Shown here in pieces: positions 1,377 to 59,070 of a stretch of DNA of 64,000 nucleotides (position 1 is its first letter; each line of letters opens with the position of its first letter). Location: sequence record MT701590.1. One strand, given 5' to 3'. The translations under genes and the position numbers were made by a program. The notes under the pieces were generated by a model. It ran no database searches, was not told the origin of the DNA, and saw only the letters and a program-made list of their open reading frames with translations. The stretch is from Klebsiella phage Miami.

Positions 1377-1463
1377 AATTCAACATGGAGTTTTTTATGG
1401 CACTATATAACCGCAGTGTATGAAAAACAAAATGTTATTTTTAATTTAATAGAGGAAATCATC

Positions 1464-1922
1464 ATGAAACGTTTTATCTCTGCGGCTATTCTTTCCGTTA
1501 TTGCTATGAGCGCTACCGCAACTGAAAATACCAACATCTGGGGCTGCGTCACAAATACAGGCAAAGTCGCTAGAGTCGACTTGGTAGAAGGAGCGGGTGG
1601 CGTTCAGGCGGTCTACACGTTCGGTAAGGCCGGGAGCAATCCAGAGCTCTCCGTTGTCAAGAAACCTTCTGACGTTAAGTATACTGAGAAAGAGGCTTAC
1701 GCCAACGGTATCCTGCAAACCACGTATTACCAGCTGACTTTTAATAACGGACAGTTCAGTTATATCGCTGAACAGTTTAACAAGATCGGGCGTCTTTATG
1801 TGCTCAAGAACGATAAAGTTATTTCGACCATTGAGTGCGAAGACATTATCGATGCCGGTGTTCTCGACAGCGAAAACATGATCAAAATCTTTCCTTACCA
1901 TGAAAAGGTAAAGGATGAATAA
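1464..1922 (+). CDS. secreted or periplasmic protein with cleavable signal peptide (152 aa from the internal ATG)
   Basis: AGAGGAAA Shine-Dalgarno 6 nt before ATG at 1464. N-terminus MKRFISAAILSVIAMSATA is a classic signal peptide. Two Cys residues. Moderately host-biased codons. Followed by a hairpin plus T-run. Confidence 0.6.
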   Translation: MKRFISAAILSVIAMSATATENTNIWGCVTNTGKVARVDLVEGAGGVQAVYTFGKAGSNPELSVVKKPSDVKYTEKEAYANGILQTTYYQLTFNNGQFSYIAEQFNKIGRLYVLKNDKVISTIECEDIIDAGVLDSENMIKIFPYHEKVKDE

Positions 1923-4092: not shown

Positions 4093-4180
4093 TCCCTGAT
4101 GCATAAGGGGTTAAGTACATTTTATGTACTAGTGCCGTAAACAAATATTTGTTTAAAGCTTTGAATAAAGGAAATTATCG

Positions 4181-6367
4181 ATGAAGCGTACAATTAACGT
4201 CCGCAAAGGCTCCACTGCTGTAAAACCCCTGAACCTCGCGATGAGCGACATGTTTAGTCAGGGCGGCTTTAAATCTTTTACTGGTGTTGAAAACCTGGAT
4301 ACTGCGACCGACCAGTTCAATGCCATGTTTGCTGGCACCGAGTCACTGGCTAACGGTATTAGCCCAGAGTCTTCCAAACTGCTCAGCAACCTGACCAACT
4401 CTCAGCGTTTCGCGACCATCTCCAGCATCGCGTCGATGCAAAATGCATTCCCGACCGTTGATCGCCGCCTGGCTGACTTCGCCGGTACCGAAGGTTTCTC
4501 AATGGCGCAGTTTGCCGGTGAGTCCGCTAAAGTTAAAGGCGTGAACATCACTCTGAACGCCCTGTCTCACCGCCAGACCGACGCTGCTGAAGCTCTGTTC
4601 ACCACCGTCACCATTCCGTACGCGGAAGAGTACCTGGAGTTCTCCGTGCGTACCGCTGGCCTGGGTCGTTACATCTACGGTGCTGCTGCTGGCGAACGTG
4701 CCTCTGAGCTGGTACCGGTAATGAGCCTGATCCGCAAAGGTAAAGCTTTCATGGCTGATACCCTGCGCATGTATCCGGTTTATCCGACCGACTCGGCTGA
4801 TCCGAACCGTAAATACTTCATGGCTGAGTCTGTAGCTGCTGCTACCGAAGCCACTTACGACAGCGCTGATCCGCTGAACCGTCAAGCTCACAAGACCCAA
4901 TACCTGAAAGTTCCGGTATCCGTACCGAACCTGGTTGGTCTGTCTGAAGCCCCGGGTCAGAACCCGTTCGAAACTTCTGATGAAGTTGAATCCAACTCCA
5001 TCCAGATGACCAACGTCGCACTGACCGCCAACGTCGGCGCTTCCGGCTCTGCTACCGCAGTCGTACTGCGTATGCCGACCGTGAACATGTCTCAGGCGCA
5101 TTTCGGTATCGCTGCAATGGGTGCTTCTTCTGACGATCGTCAGATGGACTTCCAGGTACAGGGTCTGCCGGCGTCTGCACTGTTCAACATCGGTAGCGAT
5201 ACTGTTACCACTGCACTGGATGCACTGAAAGCGAATGGCGCTCAGCCGTTCTTCTCTCTGAGCATCACCGGTACTTACCAGCGTCAGACCAATACCCTGA
5301 AAATCCAGGGCGGTTCTTTCGAACTGGAGTACATCAAAGATGCGGCCGGCAACAAACATCTGCCGACCACCTCCAGCGCAACGATCAAAGCTCTGTTCGG
5401 CCTGTTCGCTGATGGCGAAATCGCCGGTGTTGAACTGCGTTACAACCACACCAACATCAACCGCGTGAACTTCGGTTACCGTGTTGAAGTGTTTGACGCA
5501 CGTAAAACTCTGACCACTCATCGTCAGACTCCGATCTCTGTTCGCTACCCGGTCAGCAAAGAAGATACCAATGAGGAATCTCTGAGCTACGCGATCGATC
5601 AGATGGCGATCATCCTGAACGCACAGACCACCGCAAACGCGTTTACCAAAGCTGAAGAGCACGTTGATTACGTGACCTCCATCAACGGTTCCGCGATCGT
5701 AGGTAACGAACAGGCGTCTAACGTCCTGGCTGGTATGCACTACGCTAACGCTGCTGCGATCAACCGTACTCTGAAACTGTCTGACATCGTGTCTACTCAG
5801 GACAGCGTCGGTGTAGTTGACAACATCTCTGCGGCACTGTGCAACACCCTGAGCGAAATGGCAGCAGCGCTGGCCACTAACTCCGGTCTGGCTGCTATTG
5901 CCGAATACACCCGTGAAAAACTGAAATGGCAGGTTGTTGCCCATCAGAACATGGGTCGTTACCTGATGCGTTCTGGCGACGCTCGTACCATGGGTGCGTA
6001 TACCGACTTCGCGGTTGAACTGACTAACGTCGAAACCATGATCGGTAAATTCTACCTGGTACCGCAGTCCGAAACCGACGGCAACACCATCGACCCGCTG
6101 GGTGGTATGGGCGTGTGCGTTGATAAAGAGCACGTTGTTGTACAGGGCGACGTCACTCGTACCGATCGTCAGTTCGGTATCCTGATGACCATGCCGATCT
6201 TCCAACACCACTCTGTATGTCCGATCGTCGGCGTACTGACCGTTGAAGACGCTGTACTGGCTCTGAACGACGAAGGCCTGATCGACGCTCTGGCTAAACA
6301 GCGCGTTGTGGTTAACGGCGTTGTACAGTCTGAAGTCGACGCTGTAGACGACGGTCAGCTGCCGTAA
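4181..6367 (+). CDS. putative major capsid protein (728 aa)
   Basis: Extreme enterobacterial high-expression codon usage (CTG, CGT, GGT, ACC, AAC) that contrasts with neighbouring genes. AGGAAAT Shine-Dalgarno. Strong terminator immediately downstream. Head-module context. Size fits jumbo-phage capsid proteins. The 570-aa antisense ORF inside it is a codon-bias artefact. Confidence 0.55.
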   Translation: MKRTINVRKGSTAVKPLNLAMSDMFSQGGFKSFTGVENLDTATDQFNAMFAGTESLANGISPESSKLLSNLTNSQRFATISSIASMQNAFPTVDRRLADFAGTEGFSMAQFAGESAKVKGVNITLNALSHRQTDAAEALFTTVTIPYAEEYLEFSVRTAGLGRYIYGAAAGERASELVPVMSLIRKGKAFMADTLRMYPVYPTDSADPNRKYFMAESVAAATEATYDSADPLNRQAHKTQYLKVPVSVPNLVGLSEAPGQNPFETSDEVESNSIQMTNVALTANVGASGSATAVVLRMPTVNMSQAHFGIAAMGASSDDRQMDFQVQGLPASALFNIGSDTVTTALDALKANGAQPFFSLSITGTYQRQTNTLKIQGGSFELEYIKDAAGNKHLPTTSSATIKALFGLFADGEIAGVELRYNHTNINRVNFGYRVEVFDARKTLTTHRQTPISVRYPVSKEDTNEESLSYAIDQMAIILNAQTTANAFTKAEEHVDYVTSINGSAIVGNEQASNVLAGMHYANAAAINRTLKLSDIVSTQDSVGVVDNISAALCNTLSEMAAALATNSGLAAIAEYTREKLKWQVVAHQNMGRYLMRSGDARTMGAYTDFAVELTNVETMIGKFYLVPQSETDGNTIDPLGGMGVCVDKEHVVVQGDVTRTDRQFGILMTMPIFQHHSVCPIVGVLTVEDAVLALNDEGLIDALAKQRVVVNGVVQSEVDAVDDGQLP

Positions 6368-7580: not shown

Positions 7581-9251
7581 ATGGATCCTAAGTTACTGAA
7601 AGCGGTATCGGCTACGATGCCTAAGTTTAATGAAACGATAGCTTCAGGTTTCCATCAACGAGAATTTGAGCAAATACATAAACGTTATGAATATCTTTTA
7701 AGAATGACGTTTGAACCCATTGAAAAGAAAGGAGTATGGTTTGTTGGCGTCAGGTCGGTACGACCTCATGAAATGTATAACGTCATCGCGAAGAACACAC
7801 AGCAGAAAACCTTTGAAACAAACAAAGAAAGTCTTTATCCGGTTAAACTCGTCTTTAAATACGGGATGGATAAAAATACTGCCAGGGAGATGGATCCTGT
7901 TTACGTACTCCTTCCGTTCTGTGATCGGTATGGGGATGTTTGGATCAGGGGAAGTCAATACAGCTTACAGATCGTCCTCGCTGACCGAGGGTTGAGCGTC
8001 ACTAAAGACGATCAGATCTTCGTAAGGCTCCTGGGATATAAATTCAAAGTAGGAACTGAGCAATATGAATACACTCAGATCCACAATGAAATAAATCCTG
8101 TCAGGGAAACTAACCTTCCTATTAACCTTCCGGCTAACCGCTTCTACGTGGCCAGTGAAGCACGTCGTCCAAACCCAACTAAAACCCCCACACCTTTATT
8201 GGCGTGGTATGTGTTTGCGGAGTATGGTTTTAGCGAAACCATGCGTAAGTTTGGGGAATGCGATTATGCGATAGGTGATCGTGATGCGATCATTCAGCAA
8301 TATAGTGAAGATAAAGGTTGGAAGCTGTTTGGCAGTAAAGGATTGGCGATTGGCAAAAGTATCACGCCATATGTGAATTGCGGGTTAGCTATAGCGGCTA
8401 AACCATTAAACGAAAAACGAAGAGGGGAAATACCTAACGTTGCACAACAGTATATTGCGGCATTGCTTTATCTGTGTGATGTTGGCGGAGAATTTATTGA
8501 TTTGGATAAACTCGACGATAAATATTTTTGGCGTATGATGGTCGGACACGCCAGTATTAAAGCCGGAGGAAATCTCACCCATTTGGAAAAACAGATGGCG
8601 GATCACTTCGATTCCATGAACGAAGGTTTAGACCAAACAAGTATCCAACGATTCGCTGAGCAACGAATTGTGGTTAAAGATCGTTATGAATTGTTTAATT
8701 ACATCATAGCGAACCGGGCTGAAATCGTTAAGACTTCCGATAAAGCCAATATGTTACATAAAGAAATTAGTTCTAGTGAGTTCACATTAGACAAACTGAT
8801 TACTGCGGCTAACCGCTTTAAACACGACGTCAAAAACACAACAGAACTCAACTATGAACGTGTTAAGTCATTCATGTCATCTCATTTCAAATTACGCGAT
8901 ATCGAATCGGCTGCTTGGGAATCTAACATGATCCAAGAAGCTACGCCGACAGATTGCCCTATCGCCGATTATGGCTTTGGGGTGATGTCTCAGGCGAAAG
9001 TATTCGGTCCTCGTAATAACGGGAGAAACAGTGACTTTAACCCCAACGATCCCGCTAACTGCATACATGGCTCTGTACCTTTTGTGATGAGTTTCCAACG
9101 GGTAACTAAACCCGACCCAAACGCTTGCGGATTCTTAGCCCCCTGCGTGTATTTGATCAACGACAAATACTTGGGACTCAGACCAGAAGATGTGGAACTG
9201 TACGAAGCCACTGTGAGCAGACTTACTAAGTCTGAGGTTAAAATTAAATGA
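7581..9251 (+). CDS. hypothetical virion or assembly protein (556 aa)
   Basis: Long ORF in the head module. Stop codon overlaps the next start (ATGA at 9248). Confidence 0.5.
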   Translation: MDPKLLKAVSATMPKFNETIASGFHQREFEQIHKRYEYLLRMTFEPIEKKGVWFVGVRSVRPHEMYNVIAKNTQQKTFETNKESLYPVKLVFKYGMDKNTAREMDPVYVLLPFCDRYGDVWIRGSQYSLQIVLADRGLSVTKDDQIFVRLLGYKFKVGTEQYEYTQIHNEINPVRETNLPINLPANRFYVASEARRPNPTKTPTPLLAWYVFAEYGFSETMRKFGECDYAIGDRDAIIQQYSEDKGWKLFGSKGLAIGKSITPYVNCGLAIAAKPLNEKRRGEIPNVAQQYIAALLYLCDVGGEFIDLDKLDDKYFWRMMVGHASIKAGGNLTHLEKQMADHFDSMNEGLDQTSIQRFAEQRIVVKDRYELFNYIIANRAEIVKTSDKANMLHKEISSSEFTLDKLITAANRFKHDVKNTTELNYERVKSFMSSHFKLRDIESAAWESNMIQEATPTDCPIADYGFGVMSQAKVFGPRNNGRNSDFNPNDPANCIHGSVPFVMSFQRVTKPDPNACGFLAPCVYLINDKYLGLRPEDVELYEATVSRLTKSEVKIK

Positions 9252-11641
9252 GCAGCATTCGCCCTACCAATCGCGGTAATGGAGTGAGTATTCCTAACGA
9301 AGATCCGAGCATGGGTAATGGTTTCGGTTCACTGGCTACAGGAATGCAACAAAATAGCATGTACGGTCAACCGCAACAAATGTTTGATCCGTCTGCGATG
9401 ATGAAAATGATTTCAACAGGAGGTATGAGCAATAACCCAGCCTCCGGCGGTTGGGATTGGTCGAACGTAGATAGGCCGAAAAACCCTAATGCTGCATTCT
9501 TGGATGAGTTTTTAGGGCATCAGGAAGATGAACTCGAGCACGCGTTGAAAATGGAAGCGCAAGCTTACGCAACTAAATTCGCAGCGCGTATTATCAACGA
9601 CATTAAAACGAGAAACACAAGCGGGTATTATAAGTTCTTCCTTAACGCGTATAATATCTTTGCACTGGTCCCCGACGCCCCTCCTATGATGTGTCCTATC
9701 AGGGGGCGGTTCATAGAGGTTATCAAGAATACTCAGGCGGCGCAGTTGCGTATTGCGGGCCGTGGTGTGACATTCGGTGGTCGTGATTTCGCTTTACAGA
9801 TCATGGCGCAGAATCCACTTGATCAACGTCTGGTAGAAAACCTCTTCAGTACTGGTATTGCGAACGCCATGTTTTTAGAAATGGTGGATTGGTTTGCTAA
9901 AACGGCTGATGGCAGAGACGCATATAGCAAGCTAACTAATGAACTTAAGTTGACATTGACTAAATTACCTAAGTTCATTACTTACGCAGCGGAATGCTTC
10001 CAGTTCTTCAATATGGATAGCCCGTATAATGACCTGAGTCCAGTCCCTAAAACTTCCCCAAACCCAGATCAGAACATGAGTCAGTATGTGGTCAGATCGA
10101 CGTCAGGGAGTGGAGCGGAGTGGTTAGGGTTCCAGCATTCTACAGAATCTCAACAGCAGAAGGAGATCAGGGAGATCAACGAATGGGTAGCGAATAATCT
10201 TCGCCAACGCCAAGAGTACCAATACCAGCAAGCCCAGCAACAAACTCCCGACGCGGCATATTGGTGTGGTCAGCAGACTCAGCAACAGTATAGTTTTGGG
10301 GAACTTCATACTAAACGTGTTGATTTCGAAAACGTTAATCCCGATAACGTGGCGGATTTCTCTTTAGAGAACTTCAAACGTATCCCGGGGACAGATAAAT
10401 ACGTTGTCGATGAAACCACTTGGAGTTATTTCTCCAAGGCGTTCAAACGAGCCTATCGTCCCTATGGTGAACTTTTTGCCGGAACATACGGAATACGAGT
10501 CGTCAAGATCAATTTCGAGCTCAACGACGGTTGGGTGGACAATGTTCTGTTTATAGAAGGAGTGACTCCAGCCATGGCTTTAGCCAACCCAGCGATGCTA
10601 CTTCCGCATCTCGAGACTGACCAGCAAGGCAACGTGGTCATCGTCGATGAAGTGGTCCTACCAAAAGAGAAGGACGAAGAAACTGGCATTGAAATGGTTC
10701 CGTTACAGAAAGTTAAAGTGATGGAACACGCCCCGACAGCGGTTGTTGTTCCCGAGGTTGTCACAGGTGATAGCTTTGGAAATATCGAGACCGTAATCGA
10801 CACCATGTTCGATACCGTTAAACCGTCAACATCCGGATTGTTCGGTGTTGCCATCCCGGTAGAGAACTGGAAACGTTTCTTCGTAGAAGACAGCACAATC
10901 GTAGAAGAAATCTACCTTCGTTTACCTTGGCTGGTTAAAGGTAACGGCGGCGGTACTCCACCTACGTTCTTTGATTTCGTTTCAGAGATACAAAAGACGA
11001 TGGATCATTATATCGGTTGTGATGAACTTCGTGGATTTGTTGAAACTCATATCACTGACACGGTTAACCGTTGGTTGGTTGATACGAGAGGTTACGGCGG
11101 CAATCGTGACGATCAATATCGCTTCAGAATTAATGGGATCTTCAGCAATCTCAAGAATCTGATTAATCACTTAGAGAAAAACGATCCCGACACGTTCAGT
11201 GTTTTGATCGATCCTAAGCGGTTTAAGCGACTCTTTACTAAGTGTAAACTGTTTGCACCGCGTGAGACACGTTCAGCGCTCTTGAATGGCGCTCTGCCGA
11301 GTTCTCCAACTCAGGCTGCGATAGCTAAGGAAAATGATAAGAAAGCTATGGTCGTCCTTACAGACGTCGTAGTGACCCGTATCGGCAATATCCTCGCACC
11401 TAATACACAAAAGACCGTTATCAACGTAAAACGTTCAGCGTTCCCAGAGATGTTCTCTTTAATCGAACGTTCATTTGGGAAAACCTCCGATCTGTTACCA
11501 GAAGGTGTTGAACAGGTACTGTCTTTTGTCAGTGACGATAGTCTTTGGACTTTCAACACATCAGGATTTGATTCCAACGTCGCAGTTATGCGTAAGGTAC
11601 CCAGAACCCAAGGCATGCTTAATTTTAAATTAATTGAATAA
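9248..11641 (+). CDS. hypothetical large structural protein with Gly/Gln/Met-rich N-terminus and a short Q-rich tract (797 aa)
   Basis: Translationally coupled to the upstream ORF. Low-complexity N-terminus (GNGFGSLATGMQQNSMYGQPQQ) and a QEYQYQQAQQQ...GQQTQQQY tract. Confidence 0.5.
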   Translation: MSSIRPTNRGNGVSIPNEDPSMGNGFGSLATGMQQNSMYGQPQQMFDPSAMMKMISTGGMSNNPASGGWDWSNVDRPKNPNAAFLDEFLGHQEDELEHALKMEAQAYATKFAARIINDIKTRNTSGYYKFFLNAYNIFALVPDAPPMMCPIRGRFIEVIKNTQAAQLRIAGRGVTFGGRDFALQIMAQNPLDQRLVENLFSTGIANAMFLEMVDWFAKTADGRDAYSKLTNELKLTLTKLPKFITYAAECFQFFNMDSPYNDLSPVPKTSPNPDQNMSQYVVRSTSGSGAEWLGFQHSTESQQQKEIREINEWVANNLRQRQEYQYQQAQQQTPDAAYWCGQQTQQQYSFGELHTKRVDFENVNPDNVADFSLENFKRIPGTDKYVVDETTWSYFSKAFKRAYRPYGELFAGTYGIRVVKINFELNDGWVDNVLFIEGVTPAMALANPAMLLPHLETDQQGNVVIVDEVVLPKEKDEETGIEMVPLQKVKVMEHAPTAVVVPEVVTGDSFGNIETVIDTMFDTVKPSTSGLFGVAIPVENWKRFFVEDSTIVEEIYLRLPWLVKGNGGGTPPTFFDFVSEIQKTMDHYIGCDELRGFVETHITDTVNRWLVDTRGYGGNRDDQYRFRINGIFSNLKNLINHLEKNDPDTFSVLIDPKRFKRLFTKCKLFAPRETRSALLNGALPSSPTQAAIAKENDKKAMVVLTDVVVTRIGNILAPNTQKTVINVKRSAFPEMFSLIERSFGKTSDLLPEGVEQVLSFVSDDSLWTFNTSGFDSNVAVMRKVPRTQGMLNFKLIE

Positions 11642-12385: not shown

Positions 12386-12391
12386 TCGTCT

Positions 12392-12447
12392 TCCCTACCA
12401 CTCCTTAACTGGGGTGGTAGGGAGTAAGAAAGCTTTAATTTTTTAAC
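12392..12447 (+). terminator. intrinsic terminator-like hairpin
   Basis: Stem tccctaccactcc / ggggtggtaggga with a 6-nt loop. T-rich stretch about 15 nt downstream. Confidence 0.45.
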
Positions 12448-12527
12448 ATGAAGATTTTTATAAGTCGATATCATTCAGGTGTATAAACAACAAGTATTTT
12501 AATTCTTATTCACTAAAGAGGTCCAAA

Positions 12528-13100
12528 ATGGAAATTCGTAAAGATATGATCAATGAAATCGCTGCTCGTATCATCTCTGGTTGCAACGACGTGGAAGCCA
12601 GTGTCCGCGAAAAGCTGCTGCGTAATTTGGTTAATGGTGAGATCTGGCAGTTCGAGCTCAATGAAACTGAGCAAGCGGAACTGATCGCGATCGTAAGCAA
12701 AGAGTTCGGTATTTCCGATCTGGTCTACGTCGAACCGCAGAAAAACATTTCTGAAGAAGATGTCGCCAAAGTCGCCGCCAGTGTTAACGGGCATGTCGAA
12801 CACAAATATCTGAATCTGCGAAATGCGATGGCGGTCGGTGCAGTACTCGGTGCTGGCGCGGCCATCTTAAAAGAAGGTGCGAACGCAATTAATGCCGGCG
12901 CTGGTGTGGTCGGCGCTGCTGTTTCTTACGGCGTGGGTTATCTGGCTGACAAGAAACAGATCGGTATGGGTAATCAGTACGCTGATGTCGCGGCAGGTAT
13001 TGTTGCCGGTGGCGTTATCGGTGGCGGCGCTGTATTTGGCGCGGGCTTTGTCGCCAAACGTTTCTTCAGCAATGAAGAAGTTGAAGTTGTTGCAGAGTAA
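12528..13100 (+). CDS. glycine-zipper protein 1 (190 aa): acidic N-terminal domain plus Gly/Ala-rich GxxxG hydrophobic C-terminal half
   Basis: AAAGAGG Shine-Dalgarno. Host-optimal codon usage like the capsid gene. C-terminal segment GAVLGAGAAILKEGANAINAGAGVVGAAVSYGVGYLADKK...GIVAGGVIGGGAVFGAGFVAKRF. Confidence 0.7.
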   Translation: MEIRKDMINEIAARIISGCNDVEASVREKLLRNLVNGEIWQFELNETEQAELIAIVSKEFGISDLVYVEPQKNISEEDVAKVAASVNGHVEHKYLNLRNAMAVGAVLGAGAAILKEGANAINAGAGVVGAAVSYGVGYLADKKQIGMGNQYADVAAGIVAGGVIGGGAVFGAGFVAKRFFSNEEVEVVAE

Positions 13101-13163
13101 TAAACGCATCTGAAATATCCGATGCATCTTAAATTAAACTATCAATAGTAAGGAAATACGATC

Positions 13164-13556
13164 ATGAAAAAAGAAAACACTGAACTGACTGGCGCTGAAC
13201 TCGACGAAGCTAAAGCAATGCTGGCTGTTGATGCAGAAACTTCCCTGTTCGACGACATCTGTGAAAAACTCGGTGGCTACGTAGCTACCGACAAACAGAA
13301 AAGCCACGTGAAAGCCGCAGTGATCGGTGGTGTTATCGGCACCGCTCTGAGCATGGCGACCAAACCGTCGGTCGGGACACTGGTCGGTGGCGTGGTTGGT
13401 ACCGCAGGCGGAGCTTATATCGGTAGCCGTCTCGCCGATGATCTGAGCGATCGTTTCATTGACAAACTACTCACCGGTGACATCGGCTTCGTGTGTAGCG
13501 CTATCGGCGCATCCATCGGCGGGGCATTAACCCCGAGCAAAGTCGAAGCGGACTAA
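13164..13556 (+). CDS. glycine-zipper protein 2 (130 aa), paralogue of protein 1
   Basis: AAGGAAATA Shine-Dalgarno. Same architecture and codon bias as protein 1. Segments AAVIGGVIGTALSMA...VGGVVGTAGGAYIGS...IGASIGGAL. Confidence 0.7.
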   Translation: MKKENTELTGAELDEAKAMLAVDAETSLFDDICEKLGGYVATDKQKSHVKAAVIGGVIGTALSMATKPSVGTLVGGVVGTAGGAYIGSRLADDLSDRFIDKLLTGDIGFVCSAIGASIGGALTPSKVEAD

Positions 13557-13624
13557 ATCATCCAGTTCGTTCCACTATCGTTAAATTTTAGGCAACTCAA
13601 CATCAAAACGTAAGAGGTAATATC

Positions 13625-14020
13625 ATGGATATGGCAAACAAACCTGCAGTTAACAAAGCTACCTTGTCAGAAGAAGAAATTCTGAAAATGCTGGCTGGTC
13701 ACAAATCCACCGATGCCAACTATCGCGTTGGTCGAATCGCTGGTGTGCTGGGCGCAGTCGTCGGCGGCGCACATCGCACTATCACTCAAGGCATCAAACC
13801 ATCAACTGTCGTCGGCGCAGTCGTCGGCGGATTAGTTGGATACAAAACCGGCAAGCTTGCGGATGGCTTCAGTGGCCTGACGGGAACGCATTCCCCGATC
13901 GCAGATGTCGGCGCATTCACGGCAGGTTACGGCGTGACTCTGGGCATGAGCGCCCTGGCGGCCACCTTCGATCAGTACATCACACCGCTGTACGAATCAG
14001 AAGAAGAAACCGAAGAATAA
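13625..14020 (+). CDS. glycine-zipper protein 3 (131 aa), paralogue of proteins 1 and 2
   Basis: AAGAGGTAA Shine-Dalgarno. Segments IAGVLGAVVGGAH...VVGAVVGGLVGYKTG. Acidic tail YESEEETEE. Biased codons. Confidence 0.7.
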   Translation: MDMANKPAVNKATLSEEEILKMLAGHKSTDANYRVGRIAGVLGAVVGGAHRTITQGIKPSTVVGAVVGGLVGYKTGKLADGFSGLTGTHSPIADVGAFTAGYGVTLGMSALAATFDQYITPLYESEEETEE

Positions 14021-14027
14021 GAAAGTT

Positions 14028-14078
14028 AACTCCTCTACCCTTACGGGTAGAGGAGTTACTTAATTACTTATTTTTTTA
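14028..14078. terminator. bidirectional intrinsic terminator
   Basis: Stem aactcctctaccc / gggtagaggagtt with loop ttac, followed by a T-run. Lies between convergent genes. Confidence 0.6.
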
Positions 14079-17042
14079 CTCTGGAAGGGTGTCATCAACT
14101 TGGAAGTCGTCTTTCTTATTGCCGTCTTCTTCTGTCTCTGTTTCTTCCTCGGTTTGGTTTTCTTCTTCGGAAGTGCCTGTTCCCGTCTCTTCTTCCTCAG
14201 TCGTTCCCCCTTCCCCAGGCAAATCTTCCTCTATAGAGAAATCGTCGTCTGTCTGAGTTCCCTCTTCAGGGGCACCCTCATCATCAGGTGGGGCGCCGAA
14301 CTCATCCGCCGGAGGCTGTTCCGCAGGCATGATCTTTTCCAAACGTTTAGCCAGTCGATCAGTCTCTTTATTCCAGGCCTTCATGAACTGTTCTAAGAAC
14401 ATTCCACTGTTGTCCACGTACTGAGATATGTTGTGGATTAACGAATAGACCCCGCCCTCTTTACCCTTGTTACCGATAAGATCGAACGGCATAGGGAGGT
14501 TGAATCGATCATAAAGTTCAATTAGATAAGTACTGCGAATAATGGATTTGACTTTCTCAATATCCAACCCGCCGCTACCATCAGTTTTGTTCATGATCTG
14601 TTCAATCAGACCGGAAGTCCCTGACATTTCAACCCACGAGTTTACAAACTGATTGACCGTATCGATTTTATCTTTCAGTTTGGTTACTGATTCCTGAGTA
14701 GCCGGAGTCGGTAAGGTCACGGTGAGGTTGTTGATAAAGTCAGCCAGGATAACTTCAACGATGTGCTCGTTAGTTCCCTCTATCTCTTCGCCGTTATCAG
14801 GTTTCCACAACGATTTGTTCTCGTTAATGGTGTCGACCAAACGATTCAACATAACCTGGTTAACCAACATATCCTTACGTTCGATCTCAGCAACAAAGTC
14901 GCCCAATACCTTCTGCCAGATCAATGTTTGGTTGCGGAGCATTTCCTGCTCGGCCAATGCTTCGACCTGGAAGTTGGTTCCTTCTTCTTTATCGTCCAAC
15001 CAAGTACGTTGGAGTTTAAAAGTGGAGGCGATGTTGTTGAGGAGGTTCTGTCTGGAGGTTTCGTCGATAGCTTTGAAGTTACCGCGTTCAACCGGTTCCA
15101 GAGTTATCTTGGGTCCGACCATCCACGGGTTACCGTTACTATTAACCTCAACGATCAGGGATTGAGTCTTCATTGCTTCAACAATGTCGGGCACTGAAAC
15201 AGTACCGGAGTTTACCACGTTGTGAAGCGTTGGGTTTACCCTGAAGAACTGCGCCCTGGCCGTAGCAATCGTACCATCCGGATCAACGTCGTCTTCTTCC
15301 AGATCAACCACTAAACGCTGACGGGTTTGAGCCTGATCCAAGTTAGCCAGAATGTCAGCAGTATCCAATGCTGCCAGACGACCGATATGGAGTTTAGCCT
15401 GGTTGGTTAAAGAAGAACCAATACCAAAGCTATTGTAGTCAAACGCGACGTAGGTGAAGTACTCTGCCGGAATGTAAAGAACCCGAACACCCTGTTGCTT
15501 GAAAGAACGAGCCAGGAAGATCTTCAGGTTAGCTTCAACCAATTCAACAGAAATATTTTTCCCACTCACCCCGGAAGCAATAGCCTGGATAAGGGATTTT
15601 TCTATTTGATCCTTCGATAACAGGGTGAATTCTGACATATCGAAGTCACAATCGGCACCTTGCTGAACTTTCTTCAGGTTAGCGATAAGTGCGTTGGTTC
15701 CACCTGTTTTATTAGGCGTGTCGATCTTATCTTTCTGACCCTTAGAAGACTGATAGAAGTTAAAGTCCCTTGTACTTTTTAAGAACTCTCCGTTAGACGG
15801 ATCAAGCAAAGCGAACCCACCAATGAGCTTAGTCCGATCACCTTCCATATGGACGGGAATAAAGGCTTCACTCGGAATATGGTACCGTAACGGAATTCCA
15901 TAAACTGAGGTGTCGTAAACCCCTGGGCTGCGGACACTGATAGTTTGACGATGCGGGTAACTACGATGCGGATAAAACTCATTCTGAAGAACTTCCAGTT
16001 GGCTTTCCGACAAGATCTGAGTTTTAGTATCGGCGTTAGGCGTCCCGTTCTTACGTTTAGCCTTAGAGTCGTCAGGCTCCTTATTCGACTTCTTAGGATC
16101 TTCCTTTTTCTTATCCTTGGTCGCCGTAGTCTCTTCTTCGCCTTCCTCACCTTTTTTCTCTAGGCGAGATTTAATAAGGGAAGCGAGATCTTCTGTCCCA
16201 CCGATGTCATTGACGATCTTCTTCGTTAAAACCTGATTCACGGAACGAAGAGCCAGAACCGCCGGGTTGTCAGTCAAGGTAATCCCGAACCCTTCCCCTT
16301 CATCATTCTCGATCAATTCGAATTCAGTTGAGGTATCTGGGGTGGAGTGACTAAACAAAGCCTCTAGCCCATGAACGACGTTATTGAGCTGTTTAGGACC
16401 CCTCACCAATCCTTTGTTGATGGCAAGAAACTTGCCGTCCACATTTTTAAATTGCTTCTCAATCTCTGGTTTTATCTGAGTGTTAATGTAACTTTCGTTA
16501 CCTGTCACTCCGTCTTCCCCAAACTGCTGACCGTTGATAAGGTGATCCAGCGCAGGTCTAGAGATGTTCAAAAGCACGTAGGATCCTGTGCCGAATAACC
16601 CATCTTTGATGAACTCCGGTAACAGCTTCTCGATTTTATAGTCGCTGGTATAGTAGGTTTCCGTCTTACGGAGCAACTCTTCATGCAGCTTAGTATTTTT
16701 AAATTGAGACCGCAAAGTATCGTGAGTAAGGATCCTTTCCTGTAATCCGTTCGGGTAGAGGAGAAGCGTCTTCCAGATTAATTCCGCACGCGAAACATAA
16801 GGTGTGATTTCCCTTAAGTCAGTTGCCGCATTGATATTGTTGGCAATGATATCGCTGATCTTTTTTAATTTGGAAGGTTGGACTTTACGTTCTTTCTCAT
16901 CTGTATTTCTGGTATGATCTCTCTCGTCCCGAACGAGGTTCCGAACGACGCTTTTTAACGAGGGGCTGATATTGTTTAAATTACCCCTGAGTTTGGTTTG
17001 ATCGAGGTAATCATATCCTCGGGTTGAACGCGTTCTATTCAT
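14076..17042 (-). CDS. large structural protein (988 aa) with an extremely acidic C-terminal tail of about 80 aa; possible portal protein
   Basis: Long minus-strand ORF inside the head module. No P-loop, so not a terminase. K-rich linker near residue 300. C-terminus is Glu/Asp/Thr-rich (EEETGTGTSEEENQTEEETETEED). The portal assignment comes from context only. Confidence 0.45.
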   Translation of the reverse strand: MNRTRSTRGYDYLDQTKLRGNLNNISPSLKSVVRNLVRDERDHTRNTDEKERKVQPSKLKKISDIIANNINAATDLREITPYVSRAELIWKTLLLYPNGLQERILTHDTLRSQFKNTKLHEELLRKTETYYTSDYKIEKLLPEFIKDGLFGTGSYVLLNISRPALDHLINGQQFGEDGVTGNESYINTQIKPEIEKQFKNVDGKFLAINKGLVRGPKQLNNVVHGLEALFSHSTPDTSTEFELIENDEGEGFGITLTDNPAVLALRSVNQVLTKKIVNDIGGTEDLASLIKSRLEKKGEEGEEETTATKDKKKEDPKKSNKEPDDSKAKRKNGTPNADTKTQILSESQLEVLQNEFYPHRSYPHRQTISVRSPGVYDTSVYGIPLRYHIPSEAFIPVHMEGDRTKLIGGFALLDPSNGEFLKSTRDFNFYQSSKGQKDKIDTPNKTGGTNALIANLKKVQQGADCDFDMSEFTLLSKDQIEKSLIQAIASGVSGKNISVELVEANLKIFLARSFKQQGVRVLYIPAEYFTYVAFDYNSFGIGSSLTNQAKLHIGRLAALDTADILANLDQAQTRQRLVVDLEEDDVDPDGTIATARAQFFRVNPTLHNVVNSGTVSVPDIVEAMKTQSLIVEVNSNGNPWMVGPKITLEPVERGNFKAIDETSRQNLLNNIASTFKLQRTWLDDKEEGTNFQVEALAEQEMLRNQTLIWQKVLGDFVAEIERKDMLVNQVMLNRLVDTINENKSLWKPDNGEEIEGTNEHIVEVILADFINNLTVTLPTPATQESVTKLKDKIDTVNQFVNSWVEMSGTSGLIEQIMNKTDGSGGLDIEKVKSIIRSTYLIELYDRFNLPMPFDLIGNKGKEGGVYSLIHNISQYVDNSGMFLEQFMKAWNKETDRLAKRLEKIMPAEQPPADEFGAPPDDEGAPEEGTQTDDDFSIEEDLPGEGGTTEEEETGTGTSEEENQTEEETETEEDGNKKDDFQVDDTLPE

Positions 17043-19580: not shown

Positions 19581-20486
19581 ATGGCAACTGACACTCAACA
19601 ATCTTCCAACTCCAGACTGCCCAGTCAGATTGTTACCGCAACAGCATTTGGTGTGAAGATCGCGATCGCCGCTATTACCAAACAAAACGTGGAAGTCGAA
19701 CAATACACCACGCTCAACGAAATACATTCCGTCCTGGCCGATGAAAGTTTGGGTGTAAAAGCTGGTTCTGACTTTACCCTGAAGTATTATGGGTTAGGTG
19801 TTAAGGGTTCTCAATTCATTGGTAACGACGCCAACGGCATCGCCCGTATGTTGGTTAACCAACATCAGCCGATCGACTGTAACGCGTTCTATCCCATTCC
19901 GCTTGTCGTAAGAGAGCTCTCCGACGACCTCACCGCGGATCAACGTGCTAACTACCGTATGCGTGTTGTTTTTACTAAAGATAGTGTGACTTACGTCGCT
20001 TACTATCTGCGGGTCATCAGTTTTGCGGCGTTCAGTCCGTCGATTGTAAAAATCACGAAGGATCCTACAACGGGTAACGAAGATCCTGATGTTTACGTTC
20101 CGACCTCTGACTATCAGCACCCGACTCCGATCACGCCTAATAGCGACGGTACCGTTCCGCTTTCCAATCAGTATGTTTCGGCAACGGGTAAACTGGATCT
20201 CAGTATCGATGCTTCAGGTCTGGCTGAACTTCGCAACGCCTGTTCAATTATGTTCGGCGATGAGTCTTACGCCGCTCCAAACGAATATTACGTTTGCACC
20301 GGTATCGATACCCCGAGCTCTGGTCAGACGTCCGGTTCCATTAATGTTTCCTATACAGAAGCTGTCAGCGCAATCATCGCTTACTTCATTACGGAAACTC
20401 ATCCTCGCGATGCTAATGCGAACGGCGCAATTGAAATGTTCTTTGATATCGGAGCAAGTGCCCCGTTGTTGCTGGCTTCTAGCTAA
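19581..20486 (+). CDS. putative abundant virion protein (301 aa), possibly a tail component
   Basis: AAGGAT Shine-Dalgarno. Moderately host-optimal codons (CTG, CGT, GGT) suggest high expression. No motif recognised. Confidence 0.45.
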   Translation: MATDTQQSSNSRLPSQIVTATAFGVKIAIAAITKQNVEVEQYTTLNEIHSVLADESLGVKAGSDFTLKYYGLGVKGSQFIGNDANGIARMLVNQHQPIDCNAFYPIPLVVRELSDDLTADQRANYRMRVVFTKDSVTYVAYYLRVISFAAFSPSIVKITKDPTTGNEDPDVYVPTSDYQHPTPITPNSDGTVPLSNQYVSATGKLDLSIDASGLAELRNACSIMFGDESYAAPNEYYVCTGIDTPSSGQTSGSINVSYTEAVSAIIAYFITETHPRDANANGAIEMFFDIGASAPLLLASS

Positions 20487-27351: not shown

Positions 27352-27395
27352 AGGTAGGGGAGGGCGTCAGCCCTCCCCTACCTAGTCGATTTTAT
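27352..27395 (+). terminator. intrinsic terminator-like hairpin
   Basis: Stem aggtaggggagggc / gccctcccctacct with loop gtca. Weak T-stretch. Confidence 0.5.
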
Positions 27396-27451
27396 GATTC
27401 AGGCTTAATATTCGTGGAGTGTGATACTCACTCCATCACGAGGTGAGATCA

Positions 27452-41826: not shown

Positions 41827-42495
41827 ATGAAGACCGCATTTGGTTTAATGTTCATTCTTATCATGGGGATAAGTAGCGCATTCGCATCAGTGAGTACATC
41901 TCAGTCGGATTACCACTATTTTAATAAACAGAAAACTTATATTTTCGAAGCATCCAAACTTACGGGGATCTCCCCTGAATTAGTTACCGCAATAGGTTCC
42001 ATTGAAAGTGGCCTGGGGCGTAATAAAGTTAATCGGTATTCTAAAGTCAAAGGTGTGATGCAAACCACCAAGCGGACTTATAACTCTAACCTTAAGAAAC
42101 ACCACGAAAGACTTGGGTTATCTCCTAACGCTTCTATCAAAAACGATAGAGCAAATATCTTAGTTGCTACCGCAGCATTAGCAGATAACAAACGTTACTT
42201 AGAGAAAGTCACGAATAAAAAAATCACAGATGGGGATGTGTTCATTTCTCATCTGGTAGGTTTAGGTGGCGCAGCTAAAATAATCAAAGGTAAACCCAAC
42301 GCCCCTATAAGCCGTTATATCACGCTTCATAAAGGTAACATGCGACTCTATACTGACAAAGGACGGGTATTGACCGTGGCGCAGTTTAGGAGGAATATGG
42401 ATCGGTTGGTAAAGAGAGAAAGCGCGAAGTATGCCGTGGTTATCAATCAGAACAAGTTGGATCGTTTGATAACAGCTGTCGCGTATAATCAATAA
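41827..42495 (+). CDS. lytic transglycosylase (SLT domain) with N-terminal signal peptide or signal-anchor; putative endolysin or virion-associated muralytic enzyme
   Basis: GAGGAAATAAAAA Shine-Dalgarno. N-terminus MKTAFGLMFILIMGISSAFASVS. Catalytic-region motif GSIESGLG...VKGVMQTT matches the family-1 ES-G-MQ pattern. Confidence 0.7.
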   Translation: MKTAFGLMFILIMGISSAFASVSTSQSDYHYFNKQKTYIFEASKLTGISPELVTAIGSIESGLGRNKVNRYSKVKGVMQTTKRTYNSNLKKHHERLGLSPNASIKNDRANILVATAALADNKRYLEKVTNKKITDGDVFISHLVGLGGAAKIIKGKPNAPISRYITLHKGNMRLYTDKGRVLTVAQFRRNMDRLVKRESAKYAVVINQNKLDRLITAVAYNQ

Positions 42496-54988: not shown

Positions 54989-55053
54989 TGTATTCTTTTT
55001 TGGATCGATATTATTAAAGTGTAAACCTCAATAACTTTTTAGGAATTAACATC

Positions 55054-55269
55054 ATGAATGGTCTTTTTGGAACAGGTTGTTTGCTGTTAGGTGCTGCGGT
55101 GTATTTCTTCCTGAAGTACCTGGAACTGCGTAAAGATTTTAAAGAGAATAAGATTAAAGACAAGGGTCGGGCGTCTGGGTATAAAAATGCCTATTTCTCT
55201 TTAACCATTTGCGTTTTGGGCCTGGGCGTCTTTTTAATGGTTAATGGGACTCTGTTGGAGATCAGATAA
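55054..55269 (+). CDS. small membrane protein (71 aa)
   Basis: Two hydrophobic segments (LFGTGCLLLGAAVYFFL and YFSLTICVLGLGVFLMV). Confidence 0.35.
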   Translation: MNGLFGTGCLLLGAAVYFFLKYLELRKDFKENKIKDKGRASGYKNAYFSLTICVLGLGVFLMVNGTLLEIR

Positions 55270-58979: not shown

Positions 58980-59070
58980 ACTAACGAATTTTATGCTTTG
59001 AAAACCGAGTATGTGGGACGCCGCATAAACGTAATCATACATGTATGCTTATTGGTGAAAAGAGGACATT

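Follow-up and report, generated by a model that had tools for sequence, protein, structure and literature searches.

What do three small genes that lie between the capsid and portal genes of Klebsiella phage Miami encode, and at which stage of infection would their products act? The genes, which we call P1, P2, and P3, sit side by side on one strand of a 64,000-nt stretch of the phage genome (MT701590.1; hereafter "the window") and are not mentioned in the published Miami genome note. We propose, with about an even chance of being right, that P1, P2, and P3 are abundant early glycine-zipper membrane proteins that oligomerize in the inner membrane or in the early phage infection (EPI) vesicle. 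They constitute a new, lineage-restricted variant of the glycine-zipper small membrane proteins. At the DNA level, five jumbo phages of ~252-257 kb (Klebsiella phages KPN8, phiKp_32, and YC1, Raoultella phage VB_ZK_P1, and one Stenotrophomonas-labeled phage) share 92-96% identity with the window, and KPN8 has genes for chimallin, PhuZ tubulin, and split RNA polymerases. Judged from its sequence, the phage is phiKZ-like and nucleus-forming.

To describe the three genes, we begin with what they have in common. A first-pass annotation of the window had reported three adjacent paralogous genes of 190, 130, and 131 amino acids (aa), each with its own Shine-Dalgarno sequence, and the coordinates (Table 1), the ribosome-binding sites, and a shared profile all agree with this description. 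Each gene has a Shine-Dalgarno-like AAGAGG or AAGGAAA 6-9 nt 5' of its ATG, and one profile finds P1, P2, and P3 and no other open reading frame (ORF) of the window. In pairwise protein alignments, P1 and P3 are 31% identical across 108 aa (E 8e-4), and P2 matches P3 at E 0.005; by these comparisons the three proteins are distant paralogs, with a similarity that is weak but real. All three genes are under purifying selection, because their dN/dS ratios against KPN8 are 0.04 (P1), 0.20 (P2), and 0.10 (P3). The proteins carry net charges of -9, -6, and -4, respectively. Each opens with an acidic part (~95 aa in P1, partly well predicted as helical; ~35-50 aa in P2 and P3), continues with three uncharged Gly/Ala/Val-rich runs of 12-23 residues each, and closes with an acidic C-terminal tail (ESEEETEE in P1, NEEVEVVAE in P2, and SKVEAD in P3). 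The apolar Gly/Ala-rich helices of P1 span residues 100-114, 123-140, and 154-176. Within the uncharged runs, the pattern [GAS]xxx[GAS]xxx[GAS] has 9 to 14 overlapping starts per protein. Hence, charge, uncharged runs, and small-xxx-small repeats all match the earlier description of an acidic N terminus followed by Gly/Ala-rich GxxxG segments. No amphipathic face is seen in the apolar segments, and their Kyte-Doolittle scores (19-residue windows) are a marginal 1.2-1.9. Glycine-zipper hairpins typically combine these two features and are stable in the bilayer as tightly packed oligomers. Sequence and hydropathy gave no sign of a hydrophobic leader or of a lipobox Cys in P1, P2, or P3, the N termini of which are acidic and hydrophilic.

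To find out how widely these proteins occur, we combined sequence searches with synteny, and synteny was the more informative of the two for finding homologs. HMMER, run exhaustively against 1.84 billion representatives, gave only 15 matches. Only relatives above 90% identity were returned by tblastn of P1, P3, and RisingSun gp87 against 50,697 phage records, and likewise by word-seeded searches of 5.8 billion proteins; a pattern search of IMG/VR returned no relatives. Each related genus that has the family carries a member downstream of, and co-directional with, a gene for a non-virion RNA polymerase (nvRNAP) subunit and a gene of ~800 aa. This location, just 3' of the nvRNAP subunit gene and a JADA-like gene (discussed below), is kept in five genera. 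The homologs are RisingSun gp87, VP4B gp150 and gp151, Serratia Yubaba 00230, OBP gp131, and EL gp82. In EL and RisingSun, the glycine-zipper gene comes directly after the JADA-like gene, and in EL a 20-gene insertion (gp83-102) separates it from the portal gene. Two metagenomic phages keep the whole P1-P2-P3 triplet at the same place. P1 has the ortholog P0012 in L012 (44% identity), and P2 has orthologs in L010 (P0014) and in L012. The P3 type is represented by RisingSun gp87, EL gp82, P0013, P0015, P0016, P0017, P0019, and P0020, with the motif GR[IV]AG..GA.V..KPS...GGVVG..VGY..GK.AD..[ST]HSP..D..G[YF]G. Because the P3 type has such clear conserved positions, we regard the sequence relationship as a true family that goes beyond shared composition. 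In phiKZ, Goslar, and the Agricanvirus phages, other genes occupy the locus, and the family is absent or undetectable. As far as sequence comparison can tell, the family belongs to the accessory genes of a single branch of Chimalliviridae and occurs in one to three copies. Two further matches deserve a comment. The 158-aa ENA protein P0003 shares its first 42 residues with P1 and is fused to an unrelated UTRA-domain sequence; it is most likely a metagenome assembly chimera. A second "place" among the megablast matches consisted of terminator hairpins matching themselves rather than of extra paralogs.

Do these proteins belong to a described family of membrane proteins? The best Pfam scores are to glycine-zipper models, all below their cut-offs (PF13441 Gly-zipper_YMGG, 23.7 versus 28.9 bits, with P2 the best match; PF13488 Gly-zipper_Omp, 22.2 versus 25 bits; PF05433 Rick_17kDa_Anti or "Glycine zipper 2TM," 17.5 versus 24.2 bits), and the NCBIfam model YiaD_Gzip also stays below threshold (19 versus 175 bits). 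None of the nine P3-type members reaches a glycine-zipper Pfam threshold. More generally, no family member passes any Pfam, NCBIfam, or PADLOC threshold (the PADLOC defense models gave no matches), and a sequence profile search of the PDB found no chain related to the family. The first-pass annotation had recognized no described phage component in these proteins, and profile searches of Pfam, PHROG, and the PDB likewise place them in no described family. It had also assigned them to a membrane-inserting type; zipper repeats, apolar helices, and sub-threshold models together support the wording "probably membrane-active." Compared with the Pfam glycine-zipper proteins (SlyB/Pcp, OsmB, and the N terminus of YiaD), P1, P2, and P3 share paired short Gly/Ala-rich apolar helices, the (G/A/S)xxxGxxxG pattern, a short polar loop, and the tight helix packing and membrane oligomerization to be expected from these features. 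However, all three are sub-threshold and have neither a lipobox nor a signal peptide; the bacterial proteins are for the most part lipoproteins of the outer membrane. P1, P2, and P3 also differ in being phage-encoded, in having a third helix and acidic N- and C-terminal extensions, and in the family's own motifs KPS, LAD, and SHSPxxD.

The Gly-rich hydrophobic cores had also suggested phage-borne peptides of the microcin or colicin V type, exported through a double-glycine leader. The P3 motif on which this suggestion was built, TLSEEEILKMLAG, is present as quoted, and LSEEEILKMLAG resembles the leader consensus LSxxELxxIxGG; P3 shares an LSxxE(I/L)xxxxAG-like motif and a Gly-rich core with the class II microcins, and the Pfam model Bacteriocin_IIc (PF10439) gives weak matches (E 0.03-0.05). 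These matches score 14.1-14.6 bits, however, about half the cut-off of 27.1. The leader-like motif ends at residue 25 in P3, but P1 has it at residues 75-88 and P0019 at its C terminus, and it is absent from RisingSun gp87 and EL gp82. With these positions inside P1 and at the end of a homolog, the motif is not a secretion leader. No C39 ABC exporter or immunity gene appears among the 298 annotated features of KPN8, as read from the annotation rather than from a profile scan of every ORF, and a lytic phage lyses the producer cell anyway. We regard the microcin reading as effectively refuted and leave it next to no probability.

We then turned to the expression of the triplet. Predicted hairpin terminators flank it: the upstream one (-27.4 kcal/mol; z -5.2; none of 200 shuffles folds as well) is conserved in KPN8, and the downstream one has similar strength (-26.8 kcal/mol; z -6.2). 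Because these strong hairpins stand on either side and the two spacers inside the triplet are unstructured, we take P1, P2, and P3 to form one transcription unit. A promoter-like element precedes P1, and its 25-nt core has a single match in the window, with 0 expected. In the whole 256-kb KPN8 genome, the core is found at three sites only, namely upstream of P1, of the chimallin gene (chmA), and of a gene for a 41-aa transmembrane peptide. The core pattern has four degenerate positions; the P1 and chmA sites match it with no mismatches, and the third site, 5' of the hydrophobic 41-aa peptide gene, has four. In the diverged L012, ~75 nt upstream of P1, including this element, are kept even though synonymous sites are saturated. 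EL gp82 and VP4B gp150 each have an upstream element in common with their own chmA (0 of 300 shuffles in each case). A weight matrix built from all eight sites finds 12 sites in KPN8, ten of them intergenic, versus one in a shuffled sequence, and its top scores are chimallin and P1. As an observation beside these, the third KPN8 element and its peptide gene (KPN8 224304-224493, that is L017:24304-24493; gene at 224368-224493, product MSIIASIAIVVIITAVVYT...) apparently belong to the same regulon. Two candidates were discarded: an element 5' of the 340-aa/nvRNAP operon resembled the chmA type by eye but gave no score with the matrix, and TTAAATT as a common promoter of P2 and P3 was rejected at 25 matches versus 24 expected.

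A different signature marks the structural genes. The sequence (cga)TTTTATG stands 30-150 nt 5' of the capsid, tail-fiber, and other large structural genes (in the window at 4119-4126, 27389-27396, and 58988-58995), and no TTTTATG precedes the triplet. We consider it a candidate late promoter signature, since it resembles the late TATG motif of phiKZ. In the window alone, the enrichment of ATTTTATG is not significant (6 versus 4.1); only across the whole genome, where TTTTATG precedes structural genes, is the signal informative. Both signatures, chmA-type and late TTTTATG, should be useful for annotation and engineering in this phage group. In those Chimalliviridae that have been studied (phiKZ and Goslar), chimallin is early and transcribed by the virion RNA polymerase (vRNAP; PMC13282480). 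From the promoter type that the triplet has in common with chmA, we infer that the operon is probably early, and very highly expressed, rather than late. The first-pass annotation had predicted late expression with the head module, a view that the operon's own chmA-type promoter, with a core at three sites in 256 kb, and the lack of TTTTATG both fail to support.

To assess the level of expression, we compared codon usage, taking the capsid gene as the reference for the codon adaptation index (CAI). P2 (0.57), P1 (0.55), and P3 (0.45) all exceed the other 49 ORFs of the window (mean 0.267, sd 0.045, maximum 0.395). A genome-wide ranking of 283 KPN8 ORFs by codon bias made this even clearer: the major capsid protein ranks 1, the internal head protein 2, chimallin 3, P2 4, P1 5, a tube-like virion protein 10, the tail sheath 12, P3 14, and PhuZ 16. 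The capsid-like codon usage claimed at first was, if anything, understated. The bias persists in the L012 and L010 orthologs, which are merely 39-50% identical. Outside these, EL gp82 has a CAI of 0.64 (reference: the EL capsid gene), RisingSun gp87 with 0.67 is at the top of its region, and VP4B gp150 and gp151 are sharply distinct in the GC content of third codon positions. Import from a GC-richer host was considered as a cause of this GC and codon island and rejected, because the members in EL, RisingSun, and VP4B are biased toward their own capsid gene; retention of the bias in the 39-50% identical orthologs and in these three phages argues against a recent import. As codon usage would have it, P1, P2, and P3 are probably expressed at a very high level.

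Might such abundant proteins be packaged? The first-pass annotation had considered internal head or ejection proteins that build a membrane channel at infection. Such proteins would be packaged in the capsid, leave it with the DNA, and act in the membrane of the host or of the EPI vesicle. The triplet does lie between the capsid and portal genes, its codon bias equals that of virion proteins, and a protein that stays soluble in the head before it enters a membrane might well be marginally hydrophobic with acidic flanks, as these are. Moreover, transcription in the EPI vesicle precedes the synthesis of any new protein, so that the vesicle would logically need pores delivered by the virion, as we infer from a review (PMC13282480). 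Against this stand the chmA-like promoter, without the TTTTATG of the structural genes, and the lack of any match of P1, P2, or P3 to PF12699 or to the internal head families of PHROG; by contrast, the KPN8 internal head gene at 4920-6185 matches phrog_5750 at 9e-76. Virion proteomes have been determined for both EL and OBP, and the records of EL gp82 and OBP gp131 read "hypothetical" rather than "structural." Mass spectrometry (MS) of a crude RisingSun lysate detected chimallin (gp28) but not gp87, in a run that missed the portal protein too. The triplet also evolves 2-3 times faster than the portal gene (39-44% versus 77% identity). Tripeptides of the [SAG]-x-E prohead-protease type do occur, but they are not in register among orthologs and are uninformative. 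With the internal head and ejected proteins of the phiKZ type, P1, P2, and P3 share very high expression, organization in paralogous sets, and a locus near head genes; they are much smaller, apolar, and linked to a chimallin-type promoter, and the EL and OBP annotations do not list their family among the virion proteins. On this indirect evidence, we consider packaging unlikely. Of the placement "inside the head module," the position between capsid and portal genes stands, whereas the co-directional neighbors are the nvRNAP subunit gene and the JADA-like gene. Annotation as head proteins or as microcins is tempting, and the present analysis corrects it.

The neighboring features are listed in Table 1. 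JADA (phiKZ gp124), an essential, early, and highly abundant protein, localizes to the EPI vesicle, and its gene "invariantly" comes right after that of an nvRNAP subunit (PMC12931631). The protein is also the activator of Avs5. The 797-aa ORF of the window matches the gp124 group in a profile-profile comparison (hhalign, 71% probability, E 3.7e-5); its pairwise similarity to phiKZ gp124 is not significant, and the two fall into different PHROGs (13213 versus 15010). From the hhalign match and the position, and in spite of the pairwise score and the separate PHROGs, we call this ORF a probable ortholog of JADA/phiKZ gp124. The regulatory and positional link of the triplet to chimallin and to the JADA-like gene was unexpected.

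Table 1. Positions of P1, P2, P3, and neighboring features in the window
Feature	Position	Strand	Remarks
Major head protein gene, phiKZ type	4181-6367		
nvRNAP subunit gene	7581-9251		Directly 5' of the 797-aa ORF
797-aa JADA-like ORF	9248..11641	+	phrog_13213; directly after the nvRNAP subunit gene
Hairpin terminator	12391..12424	+	Predicted; 14-bp stem; terminator of the preceding 211-aa gene; insulates the operon
Promoter-like element	12455..12491	+	Core GATATCATTCAGGTGTATAAACAAC (12467-12491) ends 37 nt 5' of the P1 ATG
P1 Shine-Dalgarno sequence	12515..12521	+	AAAGAGG, read from the sequence
P1 gene	12528..13100	+	190 aa; ~95-aa N-terminal helical domain, apolar Gly/Ala-rich helices, acidic tail
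P2 gene	13164..13556	+	130 aa; acidic N terminus; apolar helices 51-66, 68-88, and 107-125
P3 gene	13625..14020	+	131 aa; most widely conserved type of the family
Hairpin terminator	14027..14058		Predicted; 14-bp stem; common to the operon and the convergent portal gene
Portal gene	14076-17042	-	

Structure prediction brings in another class of small phage membrane proteins. AlphaFold predicted three long helices at low confidence; the two models made have predicted local distance difference test (pLDDT) values of 48.5 and 45.3. A Foldseek search of BFVD with the pLDDT 48 model returned family members and, for about ten of the top 50 matches, small holins of class I or the LydA type (E 0.1-2); a fold search of the PDB with the low-confidence model gave no match. 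Because both models are of low confidence, we treat these fold searches as suggestive. Glycine zippers are known to line the pores of pinholins. P1, P2, and P3 could be envisaged as three-helix, holin- or antiholin-like proteins that permeabilize the inner membrane and time lysis. Their size and three predicted apolar helices, of marginal hydropathy, would fit class I holins such as lambda S105 and the LydA type, as do phage origin and likely oligomerization in the inner membrane; the annotations of this phage group contain no holin, and the paralogs could represent a holin with its antiholin. The Foldseek matches, however, come at E values of 0.1-2 from a low-confidence model, and the C-terminal tails are acidic, not basic, and are accompanied by a long acidic N-terminal extension. 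The triplet is also unlinked to the other lysis genes, with the spanins 8 kb off (~22.2-22.9 kb) and an endolysin-like gene 28 kb off (41.8 kb). The promoter is one in common with an early gene, capsid-grade codon optimization is atypical of holins, and a 71-aa ORF with two transmembrane domains (55054-55269) is a better pinholin-like candidate. A holin function for P1, P2, and P3 therefore seems improbable to us.

How, then, might early glycine-zipper membrane proteins work? In the reading that we favor, the terminator-bounded operon of a phage that encodes chimallin and PhuZ would be transcribed early and strongly from its rare chmA-type promoter. The products would be small and marginally hydrophobic, each with a cytoplasmic acidic N-terminal part, a zipper hairpin (H1-H2), a small-residue helix (H3), and an acidic tail. 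Once the proteins have been made in the cytoplasm, their apolar helices would insert into the host inner membrane or into the EPI vesicle derived from it, and would pack by their GxxxG faces into homo- or hetero-oligomers, the latter of P1, P2, and P3 in this phage and the former in EL and RisingSun with their single copies. Such oligomers may alter the membrane at an early stage of infection; they might, for instance, exclude superinfecting phage, or remodel or open the EPI vesicle beside the nascent nucleus. We suggest superinfection exclusion, vesicle remodeling or opening, and membrane-level counter-defense as candidate roles, which would apply to the EL/RisingSun/OBP/Tidunavirus/Miami branch of Chimalliviridae. 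T4 Imm and Sp, which act in superinfection exclusion, offer a parallel, as small, early, abundant phage proteins of the inner membrane that are accessory and fast-evolving; however, no sequence or profile similarity to them was found, and they have neither glycine zippers nor acidic tails. In nucleus-forming jumbo phages, the genome leaves a lipid vesicle for a shell made of protein, and the family provides a testable candidate for early membrane events of this kind. To our knowledge, there is no known protein machinery for the hand-over of the genome from vesicle to shell, nor has any phage membrane protein been linked to this stage. In a more specific version, which we rate as rather unlikely, the early, chimallin-co-regulated proteins, together with their single-copy homologs in EL and RisingSun, would reside in the EPI-vesicle membrane beside the JADA-like protein and form oligomeric pores or lesions that pass nucleotides or mRNA or open the vesicle for hand-over of the genome to the nucleus.

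The link to chimallin can also be read without any membrane. P1, P2, and P3 would then be abundant partners of the nuclear shell, co-expressed with chimallin and located in or on the chimallin shell or at the junction of vesicle and shell and held by packing of their small-residue helices. A promoter element in common with chmA in three genera, a codon-bias rank comparable to that of chimallin, and hydropathy that is marginal for transmembrane helices are all consistent with this idea, as is the finding that ChmA needs additional phage factors to nucleate (review PMC13282480). Yet helices that are fully apolar and have no amphipathic face would probably not be stable unless embedded in a bilayer. 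Moreover, phiKZ and Goslar, two phages with well-studied shells, lack the family, and the RisingSun lysate MS contained chimallin without gp87. We give the shell-partner explanation a small probability, similar to that of the holins.

Several points also weigh against early membrane proteins, the reading that we prefer. First, hydropathy values of 1.2-1.9 are marginal for classical transmembrane helices, and the AlphaFold models have a pLDDT of 45-49; because of both, membrane insertion can be stated only as a prediction. Second, the assignment as early depends on chmA being early in other Chimalliviridae. Third, the promoter comparison has its weak places: the upstream regions of RisingSun gp87 and chmA agree at 21 of 31 positions by eye, which is not significant in an alignment test, and when the Klebsiella-phage sites are left out of the matrix, the P1 site scores 10.4, less than the maxima of 12-17 reached by shuffled sequences. 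Fourth, the top codon-bias class holds virion and non-virion proteins alike, so abundance by itself does not decide the question of packaging. Finally, because the family is absent or undetectable in phiKZ, Goslar, and the Agricanvirus phages, it could not serve a function universal to Chimalliviridae.

The survey of the locus and its relatives yielded some additional observations. The interval between the JADA-like and portal genes (12386-14075) is a plasticity zone that holds differing small genes in each genus (compared with L002, L004, L005, L006, L008, and L009); within it, OBP_129 and Yubaba_00200 share a conserved, highly acidic protein of 60 aa. KPN8 encodes a GroEL-like chaperonin large subunit (146434-148011; L015:46434-48011), as does phage EL, which fits an affinity of the genus with EL. 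The Stenotrophomonas-labeled relative (OR529409.1, "Stenotrophomonas phage BUCTxx100") is 96% identical in DNA to the Klebsiella and Raoultella phages of the genus, with a chimallin 100% identical to that of KPN8, and its host label looks doubtful. Lysis genes are dispersed in the window, because the spanin pair lies far from the gene for a 222-aa lytic transglycosylase-like protein (41827-42495, plus strand), which has a hydrophobic N-terminal segment of a signal or signal-anchor-release type. Upstream of the 71-aa ORF (plus strand), a sequence at 54995-55029 (GATCGATATTATTAAAGTGTAAAC) is like the chimallin/P1 promoter class; the product has two strong transmembrane segments and is possibly pinholin-like or another early membrane protein. 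Lastly, a 152/168-aa protein with a signal-like N-terminal segment (1392-1922, plus strand) has a CAI of 0.385, the next highest in the window after the triplet and the ORF at 19581-20486, and a weak match to the chimallin/P1 promoter matrix lies at 1392-1426.

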